The position numbers and the translations under genes are program-made. Positions 21,265-32,438 of a DNA stretch of 64,000 nt are shown here, piece by piece (position 1 is the first letter of the stretch; every line of letters begins with the position of its first letter). The DNA lies in NCBI GenBank assembly GCA_903859055.1, contig CAIOLC010000102.1, positions 2,170 through 66,169 of the forward strand. Direction: 5' to 3'. Origin of the DNA: an uncultured Chlorobiaceae bacterium. Lineage in GTDB: Bacteria; Bacteroidota; Chlorobiia; Chlorobiales; Chlorobiaceae. The notes beneath the pieces were generated by a model. It did not search any database. It saw only the letters and a program-made list of their open reading frames with translations, and had not been told where the DNA came from.

Positions 21265-23682
21265 TCATTTTACCGCAAAATTTACAAGTTTATCTGCAAC
21301 CACGATCTCACGAAGAATTGTTTTGCCGTCAAGAAATTTGAGAGCCGTTTCAACTTTTTTTGCTTCAGCAAGCAGAAACTCTTTCGGACTTTTCGCCGGT
21401 GCAGAAAAGGTGCCTCTCAGCTTTCCGTTAATCTGTACGGCTATGGTCAAAACAGTATCCTCAACCAGTACTGGTTCATAAGAGGGGAAAGATATCCTGC
21501 TGATTGACGTGGAGTGACCCAGAGCCTCCCACAACTCCTCTGCAATGTGTGGAGCGTAGGGCGCAAGCAGGACGAGCAGTGTTTCAATCGCGGTCCGATT
21601 ATTGCAACCACTCTTGTGCAGTTCGTTGACAAAGACCATCATCTCAGAGATGGCGGTATTGAATTTGAGACTTTCGGTATCCTCGCCAACTTTTTTGATG
21701 GTTTTGTGCATACGTCTCAGCAACTCGTCGGGTATTGAGTCCAGGGAGAGTGCTGCCATTTCACCCTCAAAGGTGGGATAAACCAGTCGCCACACTTTTC
21801 CAAGAAAACGGCTGATGCCTTCGATGCCGTTGGTGTTCCATGGTTTTACCTGTTCAAGCGGGCCAAGAAACATTTCGTAGAGTCTGACTGCATCAGCACC
21901 ATAACGTGTAAGGACATGGTCGGCGGGGATGACATTGCCGCGTGATTTGGACATTTTTTCATTGTCTTCACCAAGAATCATTCCCTGATTAAAGAGTTTC
22001 CTGAATGGCTCTTTTGTGCTGACCACGCCAAGGTCAAAGAGCACCTTGTGCCAGAAACGGGCATAGAGCAGGTGGAGCACAGCATGTTCGGCACCACCGA
22101 TGTAGAGATCGACATTCATCCAGTAGCGCTCCTGCTCGGGGTCGACCAGTTGCCGACTGTTTTCAGGATCGATAAAGCGGAGATAGTACCAGCAACTTCC
22201 CGCCCACTGCGGCATGGTGTTGGTCTCTCGTCGGAATGCGCCGTGTTCATCTGTACCGTAGAGCCAGTGCGGAATATTGGCGAGTGGTGATTCACCGGTT
22301 GATGATGGATGATAGGCCTCGACCTCCGGCAGCACAAGAGGCAGTGCTCTCTCTGGCCGAAGGATCCCATCTTCATAATGCTTGATGGGAATAGGTTCTC
22401 CCCAATAACGCTGGCGGCTGAAGATCCAGTCACGAAGTTTGTAGTTCACCTTTCTTGTGCCGAAACTTTTTGTTTCAAGCCATGCAGCCATCCGATCGAA
22501 TGCTTCAGCACAAGCAAGTCCGTCAAGCGAAATTTCAGCGTTGGCTGAGTTGATGCAGATGCTGTTTTTATCCTCAAAAACAGCATCCTGAACATCATGG
22601 GGGCTTTTGATCACCTCAAGAATTGGCAGGTGGTACTGCTTGGCAAACTCCCAGTCACGGAGGTCGTGGGCTGGCACCGACATGATAGCTCCTGTGCCGT
22701 AGCTGATCAGCACAAAGTCGGATATCCAGACCGGCAGTGGCTCGCCTGTTGCGGGGTTGATGGCATAAGAGCCGGTAAAGACACCTGTCTTCTCTTTCTG
22801 AAGGCCGGTGCGTTCGAGCTCAGTTTTCAGCTTGGCCTGGCGGATAGAGTTTTTTACCTCAACCAACTGCTGCGCGGTGGCAAGCTTTTCGGCAAGCGGG
22901 TGTTCCGGTGAAATGACAAGATAGGTTGCTCCGAAAAGGGTATCTGGCCGTGTTGTATAGACCCTCAGTTTCTTGTTGTGGCATCGCAGCTCAAAATCGA
23001 TTTCAACTCCTTCCGAGCGGCCAATCCAGTTGCGCTGCATCTGCTTCACATTATCCGGCCACTCAAGCTCGTCGAGATCAGCAAGCAGGCGGTCGGCATA
23101 GGCGGTGATTTTCAGCACCCACTGTCGGAGAGGTCGGCGGATAACGGTATAGCCATCAGCTATTTTTTCTTCCACCTCCTCATTTGCCAGCACCGTCTTC
23201 AGCTCTTCGCACCAGTTGACATCCACCTCCGACATATAGGCGAGTCCTCTGTCGTAAAGCTTCAGAAAAATCCATTGGGTCCATCTGAAGTATCCTGAGT
23301 CGGTCGTGTTGATCTCGCGAGACCAGTCGTAAGAGAAGCCCATTGCCTGCAACGTGCTCTTGAAGCTGCGGATATTCTCTTCCGTGGTGATTTTCGGGTG
23401 TGTGCCTGTTTTGATGGCAAACTGCTCTGCGGGAAGTCCAAACGCATCCCAACCCATGGGATGGAGTACATTATAGCCGCAACTGCGTTTGTAGCGCGCC
23501 ACAATATCCGAAGCGGTGTAGCCTTCGAGATGGCCGACATGGAGCCCGGTGCCACTGGGGTAAGGGAACATGTCGAGTACATAGTATTTCGGCTTGGCGG
23601 AATCATCTCCGGTTTTAAAGCTGTTTTCTGCCTGCCATCGGGCCTGCCACTTTGACTCTATTGAGGAAAAATCGTATTTCAT
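21265..23682 (-). CDS. leuS: Leucine--tRNA ligase
   Basis: MFPYPSGTGLHVGH, WIFSRQRYWGEP, KMSKS. Confidence 0.98.
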   Translation of the reverse strand: MKYDFSSIESKWQARWQAENSFKTGDDSAKPKYYVLDMFPYPSGTGLHVGHLEGYTASDIVARYKRSCGYNVLHPMGWDAFGLPAEQFAIKTGTHPKITTEENIRSFKSTLQAMGFSYDWSREINTTDSGYFRWTQWIFLKLYDRGLAYMSEVDVNWCEELKTVLANEEVEEKIADGYTVIRRPLRQWVLKITAYADRLLADLDELEWPDNVKQMQRNWIGRSEGVEIDFELRCHNKKLRVYTTRPDTLFGATYLVISPEHPLAEKLATAQQLVEVKNSIRQAKLKTELERTGLQKEKTGVFTGSYAINPATGEPLPVWISDFVLISYGTGAIMSVPAHDLRDWEFAKQYHLPILEVIKSPHDVQDAVFEDKNSICINSANAEISLDGLACAEAFDRMAAWLETKSFGTRKVNYKLRDWIFSRQRYWGEPIPIKHYEDGILRPERALPLVLPEVEAYHPSSTGESPLANIPHWLYGTDEHGAFRRETNTMPQWAGSCWYYLRFIDPENSRQLVDPEQERYWMNVDLYIGGAEHAVLHLLYARFWHKVLFDLGVVSTKEPFRKLFNQGMILGEDNEKMSKSRGNVIPADHVLTRYGADAVRLYEMFLGPLEQVKPWNTNGIEGISRFLGKVWRLVYPTFEGEMAALSLDSIPDELLRRMHKTIKKVGEDTESLKFNTAISEMMVFVNELHKSGCNNRTAIETLLVLLAPYAPHIAEELWEALGHSTSISRISFPSYEPVLVEDTVLTIAVQINGKLRGTFSAPAKSPKEFLLAEAKKVETALKFLDGKTILREIVVADKLVNFAVK

Positions 23683-23920
23683 GTATTCTTTTTGGGTGAA
23701 ACGATAGAAGCAATTATGTTATAAGAAACTATAAGCAGTGGCAGTAACATCAGGATCAACAAAAGCTATACAGCAATGTTACAAGTTTTCAATAATCCCT
23801 TTTTTGATATCCTCTCCATACTCCGTTAATGGAGCGGGAATTTAAACATAAAGAGGGAAAGTGAGAGAATAGTATTTTCGGGAGGATGAATATTTTTGCT
23901 TTTGTGAAATAGTACATTTC

Positions 23921-24589
23921 CTACCGACTTCTTTTCCCGAAACCCTGCCCCGGTCGCCCATGTCCCCCTGTTTCTTCTGGAGCAATAAATTCATAGACTT
24001 TTTCGGCTGTCATCTTATTGGCGACAGCGATTTCAGTCAGAGTCTGCTCTTCGGAAACAACGGTTAACCCCGCTTGTTCCAGCTTTGCTTTCAAGGCGGC
24101 AGCGTCACCGCCCAGCCCTGGTTGCTCTGCCAGTTGCGTAAGGTTCATAAGCTCTGCATGTGGAACAGGGGGTTGCTTTTCCTGACGTTCCCAGGAGCCG
24201 GAAATTGAATCGCCTAACTTGATCACTGACGAGAAGGGCTGGAGGCCAAAGTAAGTCCCTGTTCCAAACAACAAGGAGAGAGCAATTATGACGAGCAGCT
24301 CCCTGGGATTGTTAAGCCCAGCACTGGTTTTGGATTTCAGATAGCAGAGGAAGGCTTTCCAGTTGATAAAAAAGAGGTGGAACAGAGAGAGGATTAAAAA
24401 GGAAAAGCCGAAGATGATATGCTGGTGCTGCCATCCCCTTTTTGTTAAACCGATTATTTGCCAGTCAGTCCAGTTGGCGACTCTTCCGTGAGGAGAGATA
24501 TAGAGGATTACCCCTGAAACCAGCATCATGAAAAGCGCGATGAAAAGGCCGAAGCTGATAAAGACCCGCCAACTGAATGATTTTTTCAT
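23921..24589 (-). CDS. DUF4405-like membrane protein with conserved His (possible heme b binder)
   Basis: MKKSFSWRVFIS, SGVILYISPHGRVANW, WQHQHIIFG, LFHLFFINW; its ATG overlaps the upstream TGA. Confidence 0.75.
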   Translation of the reverse strand: MKKSFSWRVFISFGLFIALFMMLVSGVILYISPHGRVANWTDWQIIGLTKRGWQHQHIIFGFSFLILSLFHLFFINWKAFLCYLKSKTSAGLNNPRELLVIIALSLLFGTGTYFGLQPFSSVIKLGDSISGSWERQEKQPPVPHAELMNLTQLAEQPGLGGDAAALKAKLEQAGLTVVSEEQTLTEIAVANKMTAEKVYEFIAPEETGGHGRPGQGFGKRSR

Positions 24590-24819
24590 GGCTTGGTGAT
24601 TGCTGGTTTCCATTGACTGGTCGTATGGCACACAGAGCAGTTCGCCTGCGTCTGGCGGTGCAGATTATCATCAGGCTGGTCACGTTTATGACACCTGATA
24701 CACTGCGATGAAGCATTCAGCCTTCTGTGGTCGAAGCTTGCGTGCTGTTCAGTGGTTTTTGCGGCATTTGCAGCAGAGCTGAACAGCATGGCTATCGTGA
24801 TAAACAATAATCTCTTCAT
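24586..24819 (-). CDS. Exported diheme c-type mini-cytochrome
   Basis: Signal peptide MKRLLFITIAMLFSSAANA; CIRCH and CSVCH; extra His in FDH and NLH; GAGG RBS. Confidence 0.85.
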   Translation of the reverse strand: MKRLLFITIAMLFSSAANAAKTTEQHASFDHRRLNASSQCIRCHKRDQPDDNLHRQTQANCSVCHTTSQWKPAITKP

Positions 24820-24843
24820 GGCATCACACCTCTTGATTTTGTA

Positions 24844-25257
24844 TTACCGATTCATTCCTGCGCCTCGCCCCATTCCCTGCCCCATTCCCATATTCGGGTT
24901 GTACTGATCCCATACCCATTCAGCTACGGCGCGTAATTCAGCATCCGGCAGCGTGAGGGCAGGCATAAGACCAAATCGGGTAATGGCTTGAGGGTCAATT
25001 GCGCTGTTTTTGTTCGGTGATTTCAGGTAAGCAACAATGTGATTCATACCCTCTTTTTTTGTCTGGAACTTCAGATGGTAGCGGTTAGCGAGCGGCATAA
25101 TTGGCGGGGCAGCTTTTGGCGGGGGCATCACGGAATGGCAGACACTGCAACTTCTGGTAAAAATCTCCTGGCCACTCAATGCTTTAGCTGATACGATTGG
25201 CGGTGAAAACCCTGACACCAAACCGGACAGAATACAAACGGACAGAACTCTTTTCAT
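24844..25257 (-). CDS. Exported class I monoheme cytochrome c
   Basis: AGGAG RBS before the ATG at 25257, signal peptide, CSVCH, distal Met in RFGLMP. Confidence 0.88.
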   Translation of the reverse strand: MKRVLSVCILSGLVSGFSPPIVSAKALSGQEIFTRSCSVCHSVMPPPKAAPPIMPLANRYHLKFQTKKEGMNHIVAYLKSPNKNSAIDPQAITRFGLMPALTLPDAELRAVAEWVWDQYNPNMGMGQGMGRGAGMNR

Positions 25258-25655
25258 GATTATTCTCCTGTTACTGTTTACCCATCTTATCGACCTGATC
25301 AACTCTTTATTGTCAATACATATTCGATTAATAATGCGGTAATATAGTCATATTTGAATCAGAGGTATTGACTTATATACGCATACTGTTTGGTCTTCAC
25401 CATTTTTAGTGCAAGTTCTCTACTGAATACGACGATTTTTTCAGTAGAACCGTGCGTAACTGTTTTATCTATTTTCTCCAACCATTTACAGGAAAAAAGC
25501 AAAAGCTTTTGAGAAGCGAGGTACCTGAAGGCTGAAATCAGGATATTGGGAGTCACGTCATGGGATGACCCCGTTTAGCGTAAAAAAACTGGCTATTCAA
25601 AAAAAAATCTCTATACCGGCACAAACAGTTGATCGATAAATAAAAATTCGCGATA

Positions 25656-25684
25656 TTTATACCAATAGGGGGTATGGGTATAAA
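25656..25684. promoter_or_regulatory. CsoR/RcnR/CstR-type operator inside a symmetric TTTATA-N17-TATAAA promoter-like element
   Basis: TTTATACCAATAGGGGGTATGGGTATAAA: ATACC-N7-GGTAT dyad with a G5 tract. Confidence 0.6.
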
Positions 25685-25776
25685 GCATCCCCATTTACCC
25701 ATAGAAAGTACGCTCTGTCATTCATATTGATAATGTGGAGCCATGAACCGAAAAATTTCAGATAAAGTGAAAACCT

Positions 25777-26142
25777 ATGAAAAGCTCTCTTGAAGTGAAC
25801 CCCGCTGCGGCCCTTGCCATGATTCAAAAGGGAGCATTGCTTGTTGATGTACGCGAATCGCGTGAAATTGCCGAAAAGTCATTTGATCTGCCGGATGTTA
25901 TCCAGATTCCTTTGGGTGAAATGAAAAGCCGGTATCGTGAAATACCTGAAAACCGTCAGGTAATTGTGGCCTGTCGCAGTGGTAGTCGCAGCATGATGGC
26001 AACCAGCTTTCTTGCGGGGAAGGGATACAGCAAAGCAATGAATATGCAGAACGGAATAATGGGATGGGAAAGGGAGGGGCTGCCACTCAAAACACAACCG
26101 AAACAAGCAGGAGGAGGATGGCTGCAACAGATATTTGGGTGA
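25777..26142 (+). CDS. Single-domain rhodanese (sulfurtransferase)
   Basis: LLVDVRE, active-site loop CRSGSRS, GIMGWEREGLP. Confidence 0.93.
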   Translation: MKSSLEVNPAAALAMIQKGALLVDVRESREIAEKSFDLPDVIQIPLGEMKSRYREIPENRQVIVACRSGSRSMMATSFLAGKGYSKAMNMQNGIMGWEREGLPLKTQPKQAGGGWLQQIFG

Positions 26143-26180
26143 AAATGAGAATAAATGCACATTCACGTGTATAGAGAAAG

Positions 26181-26225
26181 ATGTGCAAAGCAACGCTTAA
26201 CGCTACTCCATGTTGCTTTGCACAT
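26181..26225. terminator. Hairpin between the convergent rhodanese gene and the sqr operon
   Basis: Perfect 14-bp inverted repeat ATGTGCAAAGCAAC / GTTGCTTTGCACAT, 17-nt loop. Confidence 0.7.
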
Positions 26226-26252
26226 GCTTTAAGGATCCCCCCTTACCGGTTG

Positions 26253-26411
26253 TCAGGAGTGTCCGCCAACGACAACCCTCATAATCTTGACATTTAACAC
26301 AACAAATCGAACAAGCTGCCACAGCAGGTTTTTCCGCCAATAGAGTATCCCTTTTGATGGTACCGGCGGATAAGCTTCATCGTAATATGCTTTAACTTTA
26401 TTGGTGCCCAT
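26253..26411 (-). CDS. 52-aa small protein directly downstream of sqr (not in the ORF track)
   Basis: Hand translation MGTNKVKAYYDEAYPPVPSKGILYWRKNLLWQLVRFVVLNVKIMRVVVGGHS; starts 35 bp after the sqr stop and ends before the hairpin. Confidence 0.75.
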   Translation of the reverse strand: MGTNKVKAYYDEAYPPVPSKGILYWRKNLLWQLVRFVVLNVKIMRVVVGGHS

Positions 26412-26446
26412 AGTATTTCATGTTTGATGTTATCATTATACAACAG

Positions 26447-27901
26447 TTATTCAGGAATTAACCACCAGAATGGATAACCCTTTGCTTTATGGAAAAAGAG
26501 ATAGTGCAGGATTACTTTCAACCAGTGCCCTGCCAGACCAGCCTCTCCGAGAGAGTAGTTCATATCGCGACCCCATTCAGGATATTTGTCCCAGTCAGGA
26601 ACAACAGGAAAGAGGGTCATTGATGCGCCGAGTCCATCCAATGAACCAAAACCCGCTGATACAACACATGCGGCGCCCATTCTGCTCATTGAGGCTTTAT
26701 GGCGATGCTCTTTGGCCCCCTGAATTTGTTCAGCAATATTCAGTGCTACAATTTTACCCATAACACCTGCAGGCATACCAGTTCGCGGTGCTGTCGGAAA
26801 AATCTGACGGCCACTCGGGCTTGCCATGGGTTTGGAAATAGGATGCGGAGGGGCAAAGGCTATGCCAGGAGCATAGATATTTTTGTAGAGAGGATTCTGG
26901 TAAAGAGAGGGCCAGTCATCAGCCTCCCACTCCTCAAAAGGTTTTGCCTCATAATTTGCATCAACTTTCATAAACTTGTTTGGCGCAAACATCTTTTCGG
27001 TAATTTCGACTCCAATCTTGTCATAAGCCGTCAGACCAGCTCCTGAAAATGAGGGGATGAGCATGGCGAAGTCAAATTCCTGAATACACTCTTTACCATC
27101 CAGTGTTTCATAATATGCCTTGCCTGGTTCAACCCTGTGAACTCCGGCTCGTTTTATCCATTTGATACCATATTCGGCCATGAGGGATTCAGTGAAGACC
27201 TTCGTCGGAGTGTAATAGCCCCCCCTGTTAATAAAAGCACCTGCCATGCCAAAATCACCCAGCTCATACTCATTGGAGATCCAGGTGATCTGCGCCATAT
27301 TACTCAGACCCCGTTTTGAGATCTCCCAGGCCACATTCAGAATGTATTCAAAGGCTGCCCCCTGGCAGGTTGCCATTGCATGGCCCGTGCCGATCAAAAT
27401 GCGCTGCTTCTTGCCAGCCTGCATCTTTTTGATATTGTCCTGAAGATGTTCCCATGCGTGGGCCGCATGGTCGTATGTACAAACTGAAAAAGTGTTCTTG
27501 TCGGGACCGAGCCCCTCGGTTGCCTCAAAATTCAGCTTTGGACCGGTGGCATTGACCAGAAAATCATAGTCAACCTTTTCGCGTTCTCCCTTTCTCAACA
27601 GGTCGGTGTACTCAATGGTCACATACCCTTTCTTGATTTCACTATCCCCTTCCGGGTGTATTGCAACAGCTTTGGCCTGCTTCAGGATGATGCCCCAGCG
27701 GTTATAAACTTTTTTCAGTTCAAAGCGGACATCATCAATTTTCATCTGGCCAACACCAACCCAGATGTTTGACGGAGTCCACTGATAGTAACTGTTTGGG
27801 GTAACGACAACAACCTCATGCTGTTTGCCAAGTTTCTTTTTGAGAAAAGAGGCTGCGGTATGTCCTGAAACACCTGCTCCTAAAACTACAACTTTTGCCA
27901 T
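26447..27901 (-). CDS. sqr: Sulfide:quinone oxidoreductase, type IV (SqrD/SqrX-like)
   Basis: VVVLGAGVSG FAD motif; Cys in SVCTYDH, ATCQGAAFE and GAACVVSAG; PRTGM; C-terminal GHWLK...YPFWWLIPE. Confidence 0.93.
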   Translation of the reverse strand: MAKVVVLGAGVSGHTAASFLKKKLGKQHEVVVVTPNSYYQWTPSNIWVGVGQMKIDDVRFELKKVYNRWGIILKQAKAVAIHPEGDSEIKKGYVTIEYTDLLRKGEREKVDYDFLVNATGPKLNFEATEGLGPDKNTFSVCTYDHAAHAWEHLQDNIKKMQAGKKQRILIGTGHAMATCQGAAFEYILNVAWEISKRGLSNMAQITWISNEYELGDFGMAGAFINRGGYYTPTKVFTESLMAEYGIKWIKRAGVHRVEPGKAYYETLDGKECIQEFDFAMLIPSFSGAGLTAYDKIGVEITEKMFAPNKFMKVDANYEAKPFEEWEADDWPSLYQNPLYKNIYAPGIAFAPPHPISKPMASPSGRQIFPTAPRTGMPAGVMGKIVALNIAEQIQGAKEHRHKASMSRMGAACVVSAGFGSLDGLGASMTLFPVVPDWDKYPEWGRDMNYSLGEAGLAGHWLKVILHYLFFHKAKGYPFWWLIPE

Positions 27902-27982
27902 AGAGACTCCAGCTTTTAAGTGGTTTTGAATGATGTTCTGATCTTCTGGGTTGTGCGGCAGAATTACTCAACTGTCAGTCGT

Positions 27983-28186
27983 TTACTTGAACGCATGACC
28001 GGACTCGATGCCAACAGCCTTTAAAATTTTGGCCACAGGGCAAAAGCCGGTAAATGCTGCCTGAAAAAGGTTTGCACCTACAAAGCCGGTAAACCAGAGC
28101 CAGTTCGGGTTGTGATAGAGAGAGAGTAAAACGCTTGAAAGCACAAAACAGCCTGCAATTGCAAAGACGATACGATCGATATTCAT
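27983..28186 (-). CDS. DUF2892 (YgaP-like transmembrane domain) protein
   Basis: [12 protein letters not shown], two TM helices, [16 protein letters not shown]. Confidence 0.88.
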
Positions 28187-28237
28187 ACGGGTGGGTGTTA
28201 ATGATTATGGATTATGGAACTCTCTCAAGATTTCTGT

Positions 28238-28912
28238 TTATTCATTATCCCGGGTCGCTGATTCTTTTTTTGTTGCCGTAACAAGAAATACTGGATATGC
28301 TGCCGTAAAGCCTGCTCTGTTTGTTTTGTTGAAGGTGTATATGGTCTCAAACGACTTCACCTCCAGACCGGCACCATGCAGTAACGCAGCAAGCTTCGTA
28401 CGGTCAAATCCGTGATGAACCTTTTCAAGCGGGTCGTCATGAAACAACCCATCTTCCATGTCAAGATCAGCCAGTGCGAGAGTGCCGCCGGGAGAGAGCA
28501 GAGTGGAGAGGCGGTTCAGAAACCCTGCCGTGTCATCAATATGGTGAAGCGTCATGCTGCTGTAAATCAGCTCAAAGCTGCTGTTGTGCAGAGCGCACTC
28601 AGATGGTGATGAGAGATTTATACAGCTTGCCTCAATGCTCTCTATGCCCGATGTTCTGATTTTCTCCTTCAGCACGGCGAGCATCTCACGGGAGGTATCA
28701 ATTGCCCGGAGGGTTTTCACCAACGGAGCAATTTCCATGGTGAGCAGACCTGTGCCGCATCCGAACTCCAGAGCATGCATGGTTTTGTTCGGGCTTGTTG
28801 CAGTAATGATTGCTTTGGCAACAGTGAGAGCAACCGCTCTGCGTTGAGGATTTGCGTCCCACTCGGCGGCTTCGCGATTAAATTTTTCTGAACTGTTCCA
28901 GGTGCCGGACAT
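28238..28912 (-). CDS. Class I SAM-dependent methyltransferase
   Basis: LEFGCGTGLL, IDTSREML, YSSMTLHH, LSPGG. Confidence 0.9.
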   Translation of the reverse strand: MSGTWNSSEKFNREAAEWDANPQRRAVALTVAKAIITATSPNKTMHALEFGCGTGLLTMEIAPLVKTLRAIDTSREMLAVLKEKIRTSGIESIEASCINLSSPSECALHNSSFELIYSSMTLHHIDDTAGFLNRLSTLLSPGGTLALADLDMEDGLFHDDPLEKVHHGFDRTKLAALLHGAGLEVKSFETIYTFNKTNRAGFTAAYPVFLVTATKKESATRDNE

Positions 28913-28952
28913 AGTGATAAGTGTAGAAATTATAAAAGAGTAAAAAGAGCCA

Positions 28953-29420
28953 TCAGGGCTGTAAATCAGAGATGCACCCACCCTTCCGTTTAAGGGATGC
29001 GCCGCAGTGAGGGCACAGTGTCTCTCTGCAAGGCTCTCCCTTCAGGTGCGGCAGCTCAAAGCTGCATGCAGGACAAACACAAATATCAGGACGGTTAGTT
29101 GGAAAAGAGTCACAGAGAGAGCGTACAACTCCCCCCTGGATACAGAGTTGTTTGCCGCCAACAATGGCTTCTGCAACTTTTTTGCGGGCAGCTTCAAGAA
29201 TACGGCCAAAGGTTGGGCGCGATACATTCATCTGCACCGCAGCCAGAGCCTGATATAAACCCTCCTTGTCGGCCAGCCTGATAGCTTCGAGCTCGTCAAC
29301 AGTCAGCATCACGCTTTCCAGCACGTCGGGCGATACCCCTTCGGGCTGGAAACAGGTTACCTTCGGTAGCTCCCGGACACAGCGGCAGAGTGTAGGCCGT
29401 CCTGCTCGATTGGTTGTCAT
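28953..29420 (-). CDS. DUF134 (UPF0251) putative DNA-binding protein with a Cys-rich C-terminal tail
   Basis: GRPTLCR, ELEAIRLAD.EGL.Q...A..MNVSRPTFGRIL..AR.KVAEA; tail CVCPAC...CRETLCPHCG. Confidence 0.85.
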   Translation of the reverse strand: MTTNRAGRPTLCRCVRELPKVTCFQPEGVSPDVLESVMLTVDELEAIRLADKEGLYQALAAVQMNVSRPTFGRILEAARKKVAEAIVGGKQLCIQGGVVRSLCDSFPTNRPDICVCPACSFELPHLKGEPCRETLCPHCGASLKRKGGCISDLQP

Positions 29421-29445
29421 AGCCTGAGTTTGGAAAAATTAGGTT

Positions 29446-29847
29446 TTACCGGGTAACTGCTTTAACAATAAACTCAGGCGGATCCATAATGTGCTTTTTA
29501 ACCGCGCAGAGATTGGCTGCACTGATAACCGCATCCTTGTATTTTTCAGGAAAATCCGGTGGCAGCTCAATGGCGATTTCGATTTTTCCAATGCCCTTCC
29601 CCGACTCTTTTGAAAAATGTGATTGAACAAGCCGGATGCCCCCTGTCGGGATGCCTCTGCTCTGGCAAAAAGAGAGGACAAAAATACCTGCACAGGTTCC
29701 GATTGATGCAAGAAAAAGGGAAAAAGGCTCAGGAGCTGAACCCTCTCCACCAGCATATTCCGCCTGATCGGTATGAATGGTAAAGCCATTAAAGTCGGCA
29801 TTCACCTTTTTCCCGCCTCCGAACGTCACGATCATTTCGCTATTCAT
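29446..29847 (-). CDS. OsmC-like protein
   Basis: TDQ...GGEGSAPEPF.LFLAS.GTCAG and LCAVKKH (two Cys). Confidence 0.87.
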   Translation of the reverse strand: MNSEMIVTFGGGKKVNADFNGFTIHTDQAEYAGGEGSAPEPFSLFLASIGTCAGIFVLSFCQSRGIPTGGIRLVQSHFSKESGKGIGKIEIAIELPPDFPEKYKDAVISAANLCAVKKHIMDPPEFIVKAVTR

Positions 29848-29889
29848 GATAAAGAGTAGTGACAATAGTTGCTTTAAAACTTTAGTAAC

Positions 29890-29918
29890 ATTATAAGCAT
29901 AAGCTCATAACAAAGCAA
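29890..29918 (-). promoter_or_regulatory. Sigma70-type promoter with a 20-bp dyad filling the spacer
   Basis: Minus strand TTGCTT-N17-TATAAT; dyad TTATAAGC-ATAA-GCTCATAA at 29891-29910. Confidence 0.6.
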
Positions 29919-29950
29919 CCCGCCAAGGCTGTTTTCGGTACTAATCGAAA

Positions 29951-29969
29951 AAATAATTCTGAATTATTT
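29951..29969. promoter_or_regulatory. Perfect 9-1-9 AT-rich palindrome upstream of the osmC promoter
   Basis: AAATAATTC-T-GAATTATTT. Confidence 0.35.
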
Positions 29970-30097
29970 ATCCAGGCCAGTACCGTTGAAATGAAACAAA
30001 TAGTGGAGGTGATCTCTTTTCATGGTGAGTGGAAGATGACAAAACCGGAAAAGGGGGGCAGATTTGGAGGGTATATTGTGATTGACCGGGAAAAACA

Positions 30098-30131
30098 AAA
30101 AAGCAGTACAGCGTGAACTGTACTGCTTTTT
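30098..30131 (-). terminator. Intrinsic terminator of pnp
   Basis: AAAAAGCAGTACAG-CGTGAA-CTGTACTGCTTTTT. Confidence 0.85.
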
Positions 30132-30146
30132 CAGTATTGATAGTAT

Positions 30147-32324
30147 TTAGTTGCTCTCTTTGGGTTTCTCCTGGTCAACCGCCTTGATGGAGAGGGCAAA
30201 CTTGGTCTTGCCAGTGCGTGGATCCTTGCGCACATCCACCAGTTTCACCTTTACCTTCTCGCCGATCTTAAGATGATCGCTCACCTTTGTCACCCTGGTG
30301 GTACTCGATATTTCGGAGATGTGAACAAGTCCGTCAGTCTTGGGGAGGAACTCTACAAAGGCTCCAAGCTCATCGCGAATGTCGCGCACCTTGCCAATAT
30401 AGATGGTTCCAACTTCAGGCTTGGCGGTAAGGCTTTTTATGGTGGCAAGCGCCGCGTTGGTGCCCTCACTGGTGGAGCAGGCGATGGTGACGGTTCCGTC
30501 ATCATCGATATTGATCTCGGCACCGGTCTCTTCGGTAATGCTGCGGATGGTCTCGCCACCTTTGCCAATAATCATACCGATACAGTCAACCGGCACCTTG
30601 ATGGTGGTCAGTTTTGGAGCAAAGTTTGCAAGTTCCTGACGGGTAGAAGAGATCGCCTTCTCCATTTCACCGAGAATGTGCAGTCGTCCTCGGCGTGCCT
30701 GCTCAAGAGCGGTTTCAAGAATATGATAGTCAAGCCCGTCAATTTTGATGTCCATCTGGCAGGCGGTAATACCATCTTTGGTGCCTGACACCTTGAAATC
30801 CATATCTCCAAGGTGATCTTCATTGCCGAGAATATCGGAGAGGACAGCATAAGAGGATCCCTCTTTGATCAATCCCATGGCGATACCTGATACCGGTTTT
30901 TTAATTGGAACACCACCATCCATCAGGGCAAGCGTTCCACCGCAGACCGATGCCATTGATGAAGAGCCGTTTGACTCAAGAATATCAGAAACGATGCGGA
31001 TGGTGTAGGGGAACTCCTCCTGGGCAGGAGCAACCATTTTGATGGAGCGTTCGGCAAGATTGCCGTGGCCGATCTCTCTGCGCCCGACACTGCCAAGCCG
31101 TCCACACTCACCGACGCTGAAGGGCGGAAAGTTGTAGTGGAGATAGAATTTTTTATCGGCGCTGTTGGTCAGGGTATCGACGGACTGGGCATCTTTTTTT
31201 GTGCCGAGAGTAATGGTGACAAGTGCCTGTGTCTCGCCTCTGGTGAAGAGTGCTGAACCGTGGGCTCTCGGGATGATGCCCAGTTCAATACTGATCGGGC
31301 GTACCTGATCAAGTGCCCTGCCGTCAAGTCGTTTTGAATCGTCAAGAATCATGTGGCGCATCACCTTTTTCTCAATGGCATGAATCTGCTCTTCTATGAT
31401 ATGCTGGTTGACACAGAGCGCTTTCTCTGGATCAGCGGCGATCTCCTCGTTGCTGATGGTCGATTTGAAGTGCTCGATGGTTGATGCAATGATTTCGCGG
31501 TAGATCAGGGCTGTCTGGTCAGCACGCTCTTCCTTTGCAAGTGGAGTATAGGCAAGCTCCTTGAGACGGGTTTCGCAGAGTTCGCGAATGACATCAGTAA
31601 GCTCCGCCGGTATTGAAAGTGGAGCAAACGGGCGCTGCGGTTTTGCCACTTCTGCTGCTATTTCGTTTTGAAGAGCGCAAAGCTTTTTGATTGCCGTGTG
31701 GCCAAACTTGATCGCTTCAACCATCTCAGCTTCCGATATCTCTTTCATCTCACCTTCGAGCATACAGATGGTATCGTTGGTGCCACCGATACAGATATCA
31801 ATGTCGCTCTCCTGTAACTCGTTGATGTCAGGGTTAATAATATAGAGGCCGTTGATTCTGCCAACCCTCACCTCCGACATCGCGTTGTGAAAGGGAATGT
31901 CAGAGACCATGATGGCGGCTGAAGCAGCCAGGCCGCCCAGTACATCAGCATCATTGATCTGGTCTGAAGAGATAACGGTGACAATAATCTGGGTTTCATA
32001 GAGGTAGCCGTCAGGGAAAAGCGGGCGGAGTGCCCGGTCGATCAGTCTGGCTGAAAGAATCTCCTTTTCGGAAGGGCGACTTTCGCGCTTGAAAAAACCA
32101 CCGGGAAACTTGCCGGCAGCCGAATATTTTTCGCGGTATTCAACCTGGAGCGGAAAGAAGTCCTGGTTGGGTGGCGGACTCTTTTTGCTTGATACTACCG
32201 TCGCAATCACCATCGTATCGCCAAGGCGGACAACTACTGCCCCATCGGCCTGTTTTGCCATTTTGCCGGTCTCAATCGAGATTACCTTCCCCTGGCCAAG
32301 ATCAATTGCTTTGTTAACAATCAT
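30147..32324 (-). CDS. pnp: Polyribonucleotide nucleotidyltransferase
   Basis: [40 protein letters not shown] and S1 domains. Confidence 0.97.
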
Positions 32325-32438
32325 GAAAATCGTGTTGTAAAAAGTGATAAAAATGCTGCCCGGTTTTCTCAAGCAATAAACAAGTTCAGCAATATAACAT
32401 AAAAAATATCTTCTGGCACATTGTTCCCTGGCTTGCCC

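Follow-up and report, generated by a model that had tools for sequence, protein, structure and literature searches.

A sqrD gene block inserted between pnp and leuS of a Chlorobiaceae bacterium and its probable assembly from recurrent sulfur and electron-transfer modules

Gene content of the leuS–pnp region

We analyzed a stretch of 64,000 nucleotides from an uncultured Chlorobiaceae bacterium (GenBank assembly GCA_903859055.1, contig CAIOLC010000102.1, positions 2,170 to 66,169 of the forward strand), which is called the window hereafter. Between leuS and pnp the window carries a block of ten genes, among them a gene for a sulfide:quinone oxidoreductase (SQR) of the SqrD type, and all ten were confirmed by open reading frame (ORF) calls and by Pfam and NCBIfam scans (Table 1). 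The genes fall into three units. Unit 1 consists of osmC, a DUF134 gene, a methyltransferase gene and a DUF2892 gene, with sqr and a small ORF behind them; unit 2 is a rhodanese gene; unit 3 encodes a cytochrome c, a dihaem cytochrome and a DUF4405 protein. We hold with moderate confidence that the block is the SqrD cluster of freshwater Chlorobium inserted at the pnp–leuS site, a composite of five modules each of which is present elsewhere in green sulfur bacteria.

A previous sequence-only reading of this DNA had given the same ten genes in the same three-unit layout, in agreement with the ORF calls and the Pfam domains. The hairpin that it had placed between the convergent rhodanese gene and small ORF is a perfect 14-bp stem and the probable bidirectional terminator of both. 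It had also assigned a dyad to each promoter region. Dyads were found in the divergent rhodanese/cytochrome region and upstream of osmC; the strongest inverted repeat near osmC belongs to pnp and not to the island, since this hairpin is retained at the empty pnp–leuS site of relatives. In a sigma-70 consensus scan, promoters and terminators were no more frequent than in shuffled sequence.

Table 1 Features of the sqrD block and its flanks (window coordinates)
Feature	Position	Strand	Evidence or remark
Inserted block, ~6.4 kb	23684..30095	.	leuS start to pnp terminator; BLASTN homology to empty site breaks there
leuS flank	21265-23682	-	
pnp flank	30147-32372	-	
DUF4405 membrane cytochrome b-type protein with C-terminal soluble domain	23921-24631	-	PF14358, E 1.8e-14
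77-aa periplasmic dihaem c-type cytochrome, signal peptide, two CXXCH	24586-24819	-	ORF sequence
Class I monohaem cytochrome c, signal peptide, likely start 25257	24844-25302	-	PF00034/PF13442
CstR/CsoR-type operator-like dyad TTTATACCAATAGGGGGTATGGGTATAAA	25656..25684	.	Inverted repeat
Single-domain cytoplasmic rhodanese, active-site loop CRSGSRS	25777-26142	+	PF00581, E 1.1e-11
Perfect 14-bp hairpin	26181-26194/26212-26225	.	Inverted repeat, common to convergent rhodanese gene and small ORF
52-aa ORF	26253-26411	-	Directly 3' of sqr
SQR (SqrD)	26447-27901	-	CT0117 orthology
DUF2892/YgaP-like small transmembrane protein, conserved GFCP cysteine	27983-28186	-	PF11127, E 4e-14
Class I SAM-dependent methyltransferase, likely start 28909	28238-28981	-	Methyltransf_11/23/12/25
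DUF134/UPF0251 DNA-binding protein, CT0950-type	28953-29420	-	PF02001, E 4.6e-23
OsmC-family thiol peroxidase-like protein	29446-29865	-	PF02566
osmC promoter TTGCTT-N17-TATAAT; 20-bp palindrome TTATGAGCTTATGCTTATAA at 29891-29910	29890..29918	-	Conserved upstream of osmC
pnp terminator hairpin	30096..30133	-	Strongest inverted repeat 30098-30131; also at empty site of relatives

Two further products of unit 1 deserve a brief description. The OsmC-family protein has three cysteines (in IGTCAG, SFCQS and NLCAV). The methyltransferase scored below every NCBIfam cut-off, and family and sequence searches yielded no substrate assignment for it; a role as an H2S/thiol methyltransferase is speculation only.

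Insertion at the pnp–leuS spacer

The order panC-pnp-leuS-acs is contiguous in 11 other Chlorobiaceae genomes, where pnp and leuS are separated by 80-280 nt. These 11 were taken to include C. tepidum, C. luteolum, C. limicola, C. phaeobacteroides, P. phaeoclathratiforme BU-1 and Prosthecochloris aestuarii, and four close metagenome-assembled genomes (MAGs) are among them. The empty site (L086-L089, L091) reads leuS start, 17-40 nt, pnp terminator hairpin and pnp stop. A sqrD block between pnp and leuS was found only in the window and in its closest relative (L002/G103). As leuS and pnp adjoin in relatives and homology breaks at both ends, the block represents an insertion of some 6.4 kb; the adjacency of the two flanking genes in relatives was a check that the sequence-only reading had proposed. 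In two further genomes the same gap (L090:900-13000 and L082:6200-19200, in G059 and G110) is filled by a type I restriction-modification (R-M) system with two HsdM, HsdS and HsdR, which marks the pnp–leuS spacer as a hotspot of variable cargo. No integrase or tRNA gene was obvious at this hotspot.

Alignment of window 23925-30430 with L002:6801-13500 gave unequal identities along the cluster, with 99.2% for the segment from pnp through osmC and the DUF134 gene to the methyltransferase gene, 90.8% for the DUF2892 gene, sqr and small ORF, and 80.8% for the cytochrome c segment. L002 has no rhodanese block and its DUF4405 gene is deleted down to a 37-nt remnant; sqrD is kept. The mosaic identities point to recent recombination within the cluster. 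L002 also holds an extra 690 nt including a second DUF2892-like gene. Elsewhere in the source genome (G000), contig C259:3860-3920 carries a relic osmC promoter with the identical 20-bp palindrome, similar flanks and the apparent first codons of osmC; it adjoins a convergent iron-type alcohol dehydrogenase gene and no osmC lies behind it. This relic may be the footprint of an earlier location of the cluster.

The block SQR and its small companion

The block SQR is 81% identical to CT0117 of C. tepidum (gene at 112431-113885). The reference genome was identified as C. tepidum TLS, and the gene as CT0117, because the genome encodes proteins named CT1277 and CT0950. CT0117 has been described as a "bona fide SQR" with reported activity in C. 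tepidum (bioRxiv 10.1101/172254). Among its homologs, Chlorobiaceae proteins are nearest to the block protein (77-95% identity), and those of Bacteroidota come next with about 70%. Across 121 Chlorobiaceae genomes the type IV SQRs split into two groups, with at least 78% and with 39-44% identity to the block SQR, and CT0117 falls in the former. By orthology to CT0117, on which the typing rests, the block enzyme is assigned to SqrD, a type IV SQR distinct from the SqrX subgroup. As an SqrD, it would oxidize sulfide to polysulfide and reduce menaquinone.

The protein has the FAD-binding sequence VVLGAGVSG at residues 5-13, which conforms to GxGxxG, and Cys141, Cys179 and Cys412 are invariant in all 86 SQR homologs (86/86). 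A PDB sequence search returned the type I SQRs 3SZ0 and 3HYV as the closest solved structures (E ~1e-35) and found no type IV structure. The block's sqrD is the one sqr copy detected in the 94.75%-complete source genome, and genes of the CT1087 and CT1277 types were not found there. The SQR type and copy number, which had been put forward as points to check, came out as type IV SqrD and a sole sqr copy found.

Directly behind sqr lies the small ORF for 52 amino acids. Among 80 loci fetched with SQR, all 78 from Chlorobiota and Bacteroidota have a match to this ORF after sqrD, as do 41/41 Chlorobiaceae loci whose downstream flank is 4 kb or longer. In three genomes an ORF of 38 aa that shares the helix motif given below begins 39-44 nt after the SqrX gene; at a fourth SqrX locus examined (L123), no downstream small ORF was found. 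A 54-aa version follows the sqr homolog of Sulfurimonas. The 52-aa protein has a conserved N-terminus, Y-x-(D/E)-E-x-Y-P-P-x-P, a basic amphipathic helix, W-Q-x-x-R-F-x-V-L-N-x-K-I, and a C-terminal G-H-S. In an AlphaFold2 (AF2) model, residues 1-19 are disordered and residues 20-49 form a helix with a predicted local distance difference test score (pLDDT) of about 90. A profile search gave 410 representative clusters, almost all of 43-80 aa, and no Pfam or NCBIfam model matches the ORF even at E<=1. Its database relatives are all named "hypothetical protein", including the C. tepidum ortholog AAM71366. The distribution suggests that sqrD and the small ORF are an ancestral pair common with Bacteroidota, and the small protein is a putative membrane-interface partner of type IV SQR.

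A palindrome at the osmC promoter and the DUF134 protein

An alignment of 31 distinct osmC upstream regions indicated a promoter of the sigma-70 type and, over its spacer and -10 box, a 20-bp palindrome with the consensus TTATGAGCATATGCTTATAA. The palindrome is conserved in nearly all loci, at 35-83 nt upstream of osmC (36 nt in the window). The 2.65-Mb source genome has 2 sites, one intact at osmC and the relic on C259. Other genomes were searched with up to 3 mismatches allowed, and in five of them a reversed control pattern gave no matches. The palindrome is also found 144-254 nt upstream of every stand-alone sqrD, including those in C. tepidum (G026), in the C. luteolum and C. phaeovibrioides loci and in Chlorobium sp. 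N1, the site of CT0117 being at 112,168. A related site precedes CT1087, a 390-aa ORF beside ATP-citrate lyase, by 87 nt. In 4/5 genomes searched, the variant TTATTAGCATATGCCAATAA stands directly upstream of the gene for a CT1277-type DUF134 paralog, and the palindrome precedes NifX-like genes as well. Two palindrome variants, GAGCATATGCTT and TAGCATATGCCA, were distinguished. From these sites the palindrome appears to link osmC, sqrD, CT1087 and DUF134 genes into one regulon across genera.

In C. tepidum, CT1087 is sulfide-induced, and deletion of CT1277 derepresses this sqr gene; a motif named PSOS-1 was reported at the CT0117, CT1087 and CT1277 promoters, where it overlaps the -10/-6 box and extends into the spacer (bioRxiv 10.1101/172254, Hilzinger et al., preprint). 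As the osmC palindrome is sited at the same three promoters and at the same positions, it is very probably PSOS-1, an identification made by location.

The C. tepidum ortholog of the block DUF134 is the UPF0251 protein CT0950, and the UPF0251 protein CT1277 is its paralog. The block protein has a conserved N-terminal cysteine and a C-terminal CxCxxC...CxxC cluster. Residues 41-88 of its AF2 model match region 4 of sigma-70, a helix-turn-helix, as a local match, and in the fold search the C-terminus weakly resembled the Cys4 sites of rubredoxin and desulforedoxin. A PDB sequence search found no DUF134 structure, and a literature search on CT0950, CT0118 and UPF0251 returned nothing relevant. 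The block DUF134 appears as a candidate repressor of its own operon.

A CstR-type operator at the rhodanese promoter

The dyad TTTATACCAATAGGGGGTATGGGTATAAA lies 93-121 nt upstream of the rhodanese gene and has the form of a CsoR/CstR operator. An extended motif, ATACC-N7-GGTAT-N-GGTAT, has exactly two sites in the source genome, window 25659-25681 and C280:7777-7799, and 0 matches in the reversed control. Both operator-like dyads, this one and the osmC palindrome, are far beyond chance. The second site of the extended motif is 26 nt upstream of a CstR-like gene (C280:7826-8074), which is followed on contig C280 by genes for TolC and a resistance-nodulation-division (RND) pump. The same motif stands before CsoR-family genes in L004-L007, L031, L035, L037 and L078, and rhodanese homologs of 55-61% identity in relatives are divergent from a CsoR-family gene with the motif between the two.

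This CsoR-family regulator has Cys...Asn-x3-Cys in place of Cys...His-x3-Cys. The C280 product is 76-78% identical to the c17 representative (...EEC...QRNLKQC), and the best PDB match of the regulator, 7MQ1 (...DRDC...TENLTEC), shows the same Cys/Asn/Cys pattern. CstR-type persulfide sensing has been described for Firmicutes. Judging from the operator and regulator sequences, it appears to act also in Chlorobiaceae, on the rhodanese gene and on the RND pump. The prediction of the sequence-only reading that the block has regulatory parts of its own is borne out in this form: the DUF134 gene comes with a palindromic operator that is conserved, and the rhodanese promoter has an operator of the CstR type.

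CstR-type operators were also observed between a cytochrome c5 gene and osmC at L078:6608, L017:1454, L019:7036 and L039:5994. L078 has no DUF134 gene in the operon, and its CstR-type operator occupies the usual place of the palindrome. L078 may therefore be a natural regulator swap.

The cytochrome unit

The DUF4405 gene likely starts at ATG 24589, which overlaps the stop codon of the dihaem cytochrome gene (ATGA), and its product matches PF14358 at 54.5 bits against a cut-off of 26.7. A member of the DUF4405 family binds haem b, and the family is structurally related to MsrQ and PepSY-type cytochromes (bioRxiv 10.1101/2024.03.13.584918). The dihaem cytochrome has weak matches to cytochrome c7/c3 and is kept beside DUF4405 in relatives. 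The pair of cytochrome c and DUF4405 also occurs in G031, G057 and G021 (loci L104, L103 and L105). Neighboring genes of histidine kinase/NtrC type in relatives prompted a search for a sigma-54 promoter upstream of the cytochrome gene, which was negative in 22/23 loci.

A second pair of a dihaem cytochrome and a short DUF4405 protein is encoded on contig C233:945-1585. Its members are 72% and 64% identical to those of the block, and the DUF4405 protein has 149 aa and no C-terminal domain. The haem unit of the dihaem protein, about 48 aa long, is tandemly repeated in multihaem ORFs on contigs C31, C205 and C187. A role in photoferrotrophy or extracellular electron transfer was considered, as the relatives include C. 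ferrooxidans, and was dropped because the module is Chlorobiaceae-wide, with DUF4405 in 111/121 genomes (including ones taken as C. tepidum, C. limicola and P. aestuarii).

Recurrence of the units in relatives

Neighborhoods were counted for 55 Chlorobiaceae sqrD loci, with loci of sufficient flank as denominators. A DUF2892 gene is directly upstream of sqrD in 20/42 loci; osmC is upstream in 16, a methyltransferase gene in 14 and a DUF134 gene in 11 of the same 42. Downstream of sqrD, a cytochrome c gene is found in 10/41 loci and a DUF4405 gene in 9/41. Of the 33 loci with two flanks, 20 have neither unit 1 nor unit 3, 6 have both, and the others have only unit 1 (6 loci) or only unit 3 (1 locus); this association gives Fisher p=0.005, with no correction for phylogeny. 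All three units including the rhodanese are present in the window, L011 and L078, and units 1 and 3 without the rhodanese unit surround sqrD in L009, L016, L017 and L019. The sequence-only reading had made its case depend on the units being found together elsewhere, and since they co-occur in these relatives it stands in this respect.

The units also recur in other orders. Six genomes have no sqrD at this place and show the contiguous string cytochrome c-DUF4405-osmC-[383-aa CT1087-like sqr]-DUF134-methyltransferase-DUF2892, a different permutation that still joins units 1 and 3. The 383-aa sqr-like gene stands between osmC and the DUF134 gene in many freshwater Chlorobium relatives (L009:7380-8531) and is 70% identical to CT1087, which is located in C. 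tepidum at L119:4598-5857 (1,024,597-1,025,857). For this 24%-identical "second sqr", the idea that it encodes a generic disulfide reductase was rejected on the 70% identity to CT1087. As the gene is a CT1087 ortholog, relatives with the embedded gene hold both SQR types in one cluster, and the CT1087-type gene appears to have been lost from the source genome. The osmC-DUF134 pair is kept in the four other cultured-type genomes examined (C. tepidum, G026, and G031, G040 and G021; loci L113-L115 and L117), and the methyltransferase gene follows the DUF134 gene in relatives too. Strain BU-1 has the order osmC-DUF134-methyltransferase-x-DUF2892-sqrD-small ORF, its DUF134 gene being annotated as Ppha_1343.

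Two other observations concern the sqrD loci. Another frequent arrangement (L015, L018, L020, L027 and L033) has an opposite-strand gene for a 102-aa HTH_3/XRE (HigA-like) protein upstream of sqrD and no palindrome. Some MAGs have two sqrD copies, one of each arrangement (e.g. L003/L028 and L016/L022).

The sequence-only reading had proposed that the block is a single circuit. In its explicit form, one dedicated co-regulated system, the cytochrome chain would take electrons from the quinol reduced by SqrD, and the sulfur carriers would pass on the SqrD product. The genes are physically clustered, units 1 and 3 recur around sqrD, and a haem-b membrane protein with periplasmic cytochromes is a plausible quinol:cytochrome c path. 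However, a common operator was not found; two units have two different operators and none was detected for the cytochrome unit. The cytochrome module also occurs in SqrX-only genomes (G031 and G021) or unlinked to sqr, L002 has lost DUF4405 and is without rhodanese, yet keeps sqrD, and the sigma-54 search gave no support. We regard such a circuit as the least probable of the explanations weighed here. The gene distributions argue that the modules consist of genes common throughout the family, which form clusters in one freshwater Chlorobium clade, and not a dedicated system.

A modular model for the block

In the composite model that we favor, the sqrD block would have been inserted as one 6.4-kb piece in the source lineage and its closest relative. 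In the first of the five modules, SqrD with its small membrane-interface partner would oxidize sulfide and reduce menaquinone. The second module is DUF2892, a small Cys-bearing membrane protein. In the third, the CT0950-type DUF134 would bind the palindrome and repress osmC, its own gene and the methyltransferase gene, and transcription from the osmC promoter would read through DUF2892, sqrD and the small ORF. Read-through is proposed because the gaps are 25-81 nt and no terminator occurs before the hairpin 26181-26225. The sole SQR of the genome would thus be placed under its sole DUF134 operator. In the fourth module, a trans-encoded CstR-like repressor would hold the rhodanese promoter until persulfide accumulates. 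The fifth comprises the haem-b DUF4405 protein and the two periplasmic c-type cytochromes, which would move electrons across or along the membrane, linking the quinone pool or cytoplasm with the periplasm. OsmC, DUF2892 and rhodanese would handle reactive thiol and sulfane species, and a response of the block to sulfide would be expected.

Several observations weigh against this model. In the window no palindrome or CstR-type site was found upstream of sqr, DUF2892 or the cytochrome unit, and as no operator stands directly before sqr or DUF2892, the control of sqrD depends on the assumed read-through. PSOS-1 was assigned to CT1277 (bioRxiv 10.1101/172254), and the source genome has no CT1277-type gene. 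In L011 and L017 the palindrome is retained although the operon has no DUF134 gene. The AF2 model of DUF134 is of low confidence (pLDDT 65) and gave no significant whole-protein fold match. In the SQR tree, the arrangement of unit 1, sqrD and unit 3 is on branches that diverge one after another at the base of a freshwater Chlorobium clade of 42 species, and for this reason much of the co-occurrence of the units would reflect shared ancestry followed by break-up, not repeated selection. Orthologs of DUF4405 are found in 111/121 and those of DUF134 in 98/121 Chlorobiaceae genomes, mostly far from sqr. By eye, the neighbors of DUF4405 in C. tepidum are not sulfur genes; this ortholog (L102:6023-8516, ~287 kb) has 279 aa and two C-terminal repeats and adjoins three ORFs that resemble in sequence an LTXXQ-motif periplasmic protein, a putative anti-sigma factor and an extracytoplasmic function (ECF) sigma factor.

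Alternatively, the units may be functionally independent. Their adjacency would then come from cargo that piled up at a hotspot and from vertical inheritance of a single ancestral arrangement in one freshwater Chlorobium clade, with sqrD and the small ORF as the only true functional unit. The unrelated R-M cargo in the pnp–leuS gap of other genomes agrees with this, as does the mosaic of the window and L002 (99%, 91% and 81%), in which the rhodanese is absent and DUF4405 deleted from L002. So do the confinement of the arrangement to basal branches of one clade, the family-wide and mostly unlinked occurrence of DUF4405 and DUF134, and the presence of two different operators with the cytochromes under neither. 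On the other hand, the modules stay joined in permutations with sqrD central, with sqrD absent or with a CT1087-type sqr embedded, and the palindrome ties osmC, sqrD, CT1087 and DUF134 genes of several genera together. In addition, a CstR-type operator stands upstream of osmC in L017, L019, L039 and L078, either in place of the palindrome or together with it. We therefore consider full independence rather unlikely.

The sigma- and anti-sigma-like neighbors of the C. tepidum DUF4405 gene hint at an envelope-stress connection. It could be argued that the non-SQR genes are a defense set against envelope and thiol-oxidative stress that came to lie beside sqrD secondarily, with OsmC as a hydroperoxide reductase, an MsrQ-like DUF4405 and c-type cytochromes feeding periplasmic repair, and DUF134 sensing the redox or metal state instead of sulfide. 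The OsmC-family fold, the relation of DUF4405 to MsrQ and PepSY-type cytochromes, the weakly rubredoxin/desulforedoxin Cys4-like C-terminus of DUF134 and the typical pairing of DUF134 genes with NifX-like cofactor-binding genes are all in line with this idea. The DUF134 operator, however, precedes both bona fide SQR genes of C. tepidum, CT1277 deletion alters the sulfide response of CT1087, and a CT1087-type SQR lies inside the osmC-DUF134 operon of relatives. The presence of DUF2892, a rhodanese and a CstR-type operator likewise speaks for sulfane sulfur. A stress-defense set is thus improbable, and we retain the composite of five modules.

A bolder extension of the composite model, which we put forward tentatively as a possibility, combines two proposals: that CT0950-type DUF134 proteins are direct, sulfide- or polysulfide-responsive repressors of sqrD across green sulfur bacteria, and that type IV SQRs are two-subunit enzymes. 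Sensing by DUF134 would use the conserved cysteines or the rubredoxin-like Cys4 site, and the 40-60-aa amphipathic partner of SQR would be needed for membrane docking or quinone access.

SqrD is the enzyme that feeds sulfide electrons into photosynthesis in most green sulfur bacteria. The CT0950-type DUF134, with an operator common to sqrD, CT1087 and CT1277, could resolve which protein binds PSOS-1. If its proposed role is true, DUF134/UPF0251 would join CstR, SqrR/BigR and FisR as another structural type of reactive-sulfur sensor. The conserved mini-protein that accompanies type IV SQRs is a testable lead from a partner family that has no Pfam or NCBIfam model. The cluster also shows freshwater Chlorobium populations shuffling sulfur modules, with the pnp–leuS spacer as a hotspot for cargo.

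Comparison with known systems

By analogy, the block resembles known clusters for sulfide and reactive sulfur, namely the PSOS-1 regulon, the cst operon and the SqrR regulon. The closest likeness is to the sulfide regulon of C. tepidum, in which the SQR CT0117 is the ortholog and CT1277 the DUF134 paralog of the block proteins, and the palindrome matches the sites before CT0117, CT1087 and CT1277 that overlap the -10/-6 box. The block differs in that its regulator is of the CT0950 type, co-operonic with osmC and the methyltransferase gene and joined to sqrD, and in that the source genome lacks CT1277 and CT1087.

The cst operon of Staphylococcus aureus and Enterococcus faecalis shares with the block a CsoR-family repressor with the Cys...Asn-x3-Cys fingerprint. 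In both, an AT-rich inverted repeat flanking a G-tract precedes the cstR-like gene and a rhodanese gene beside an SQR gene. The block, however, is not a cst operon, because its regulator is encoded in trans with a TolC/RND pump, its SQR is of type IV and not type II, and it has neither the persulfide dioxygenase CstB (metallo-beta-lactamase/PDO) nor a multidomain CstA, its sole sulfurtransferase being the single-domain rhodanese. Its host, moreover, is a strict anaerobe and a phototroph. The ArsR-family SqrR/BigR regulon of the phototroph Rhodobacter capsulatus is similar in having a sulfide- or polysulfide-responsive repressor over sqr and rhodanese genes, which is predicted here. The block contains no ArsR-family regulator and no ATTC-N8-GAAT box, and its candidate sensors are DUF134 and the CsoR-family protein.

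With the DUF4405/MsrQ/PepSY-like/FezC haem-b cytochromes, the block's membrane protein has in common the DUF4405 domain, the conserved His and a predicted role in passing electrons through the membrane to extracytosolic partners. Its own partners, however, are c-type cytochromes and not ApbE or flavinylated proteins, and no apbE was found among the ten ORFs of the block, the rest of the genome not having been searched. The membrane protein also has an extra C-terminal soluble domain and clusters with sulfur genes.

The suggestion that the block is a new system holds in part. Its regulatory core is partly described through CT1277 and PSOS-1, and its modules are family-wide; features of the combination are absent from the searchable literature. 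New in this sense are a CT0950-type DUF134/osmC operon physically joined with sqrD, and with a CT1087-type sqr in relatives, the predicted CstR-type control in Chlorobiaceae, the putative small partner of type IV SQR and the recurrent linkage of the cytochrome c/DUF4405 module.

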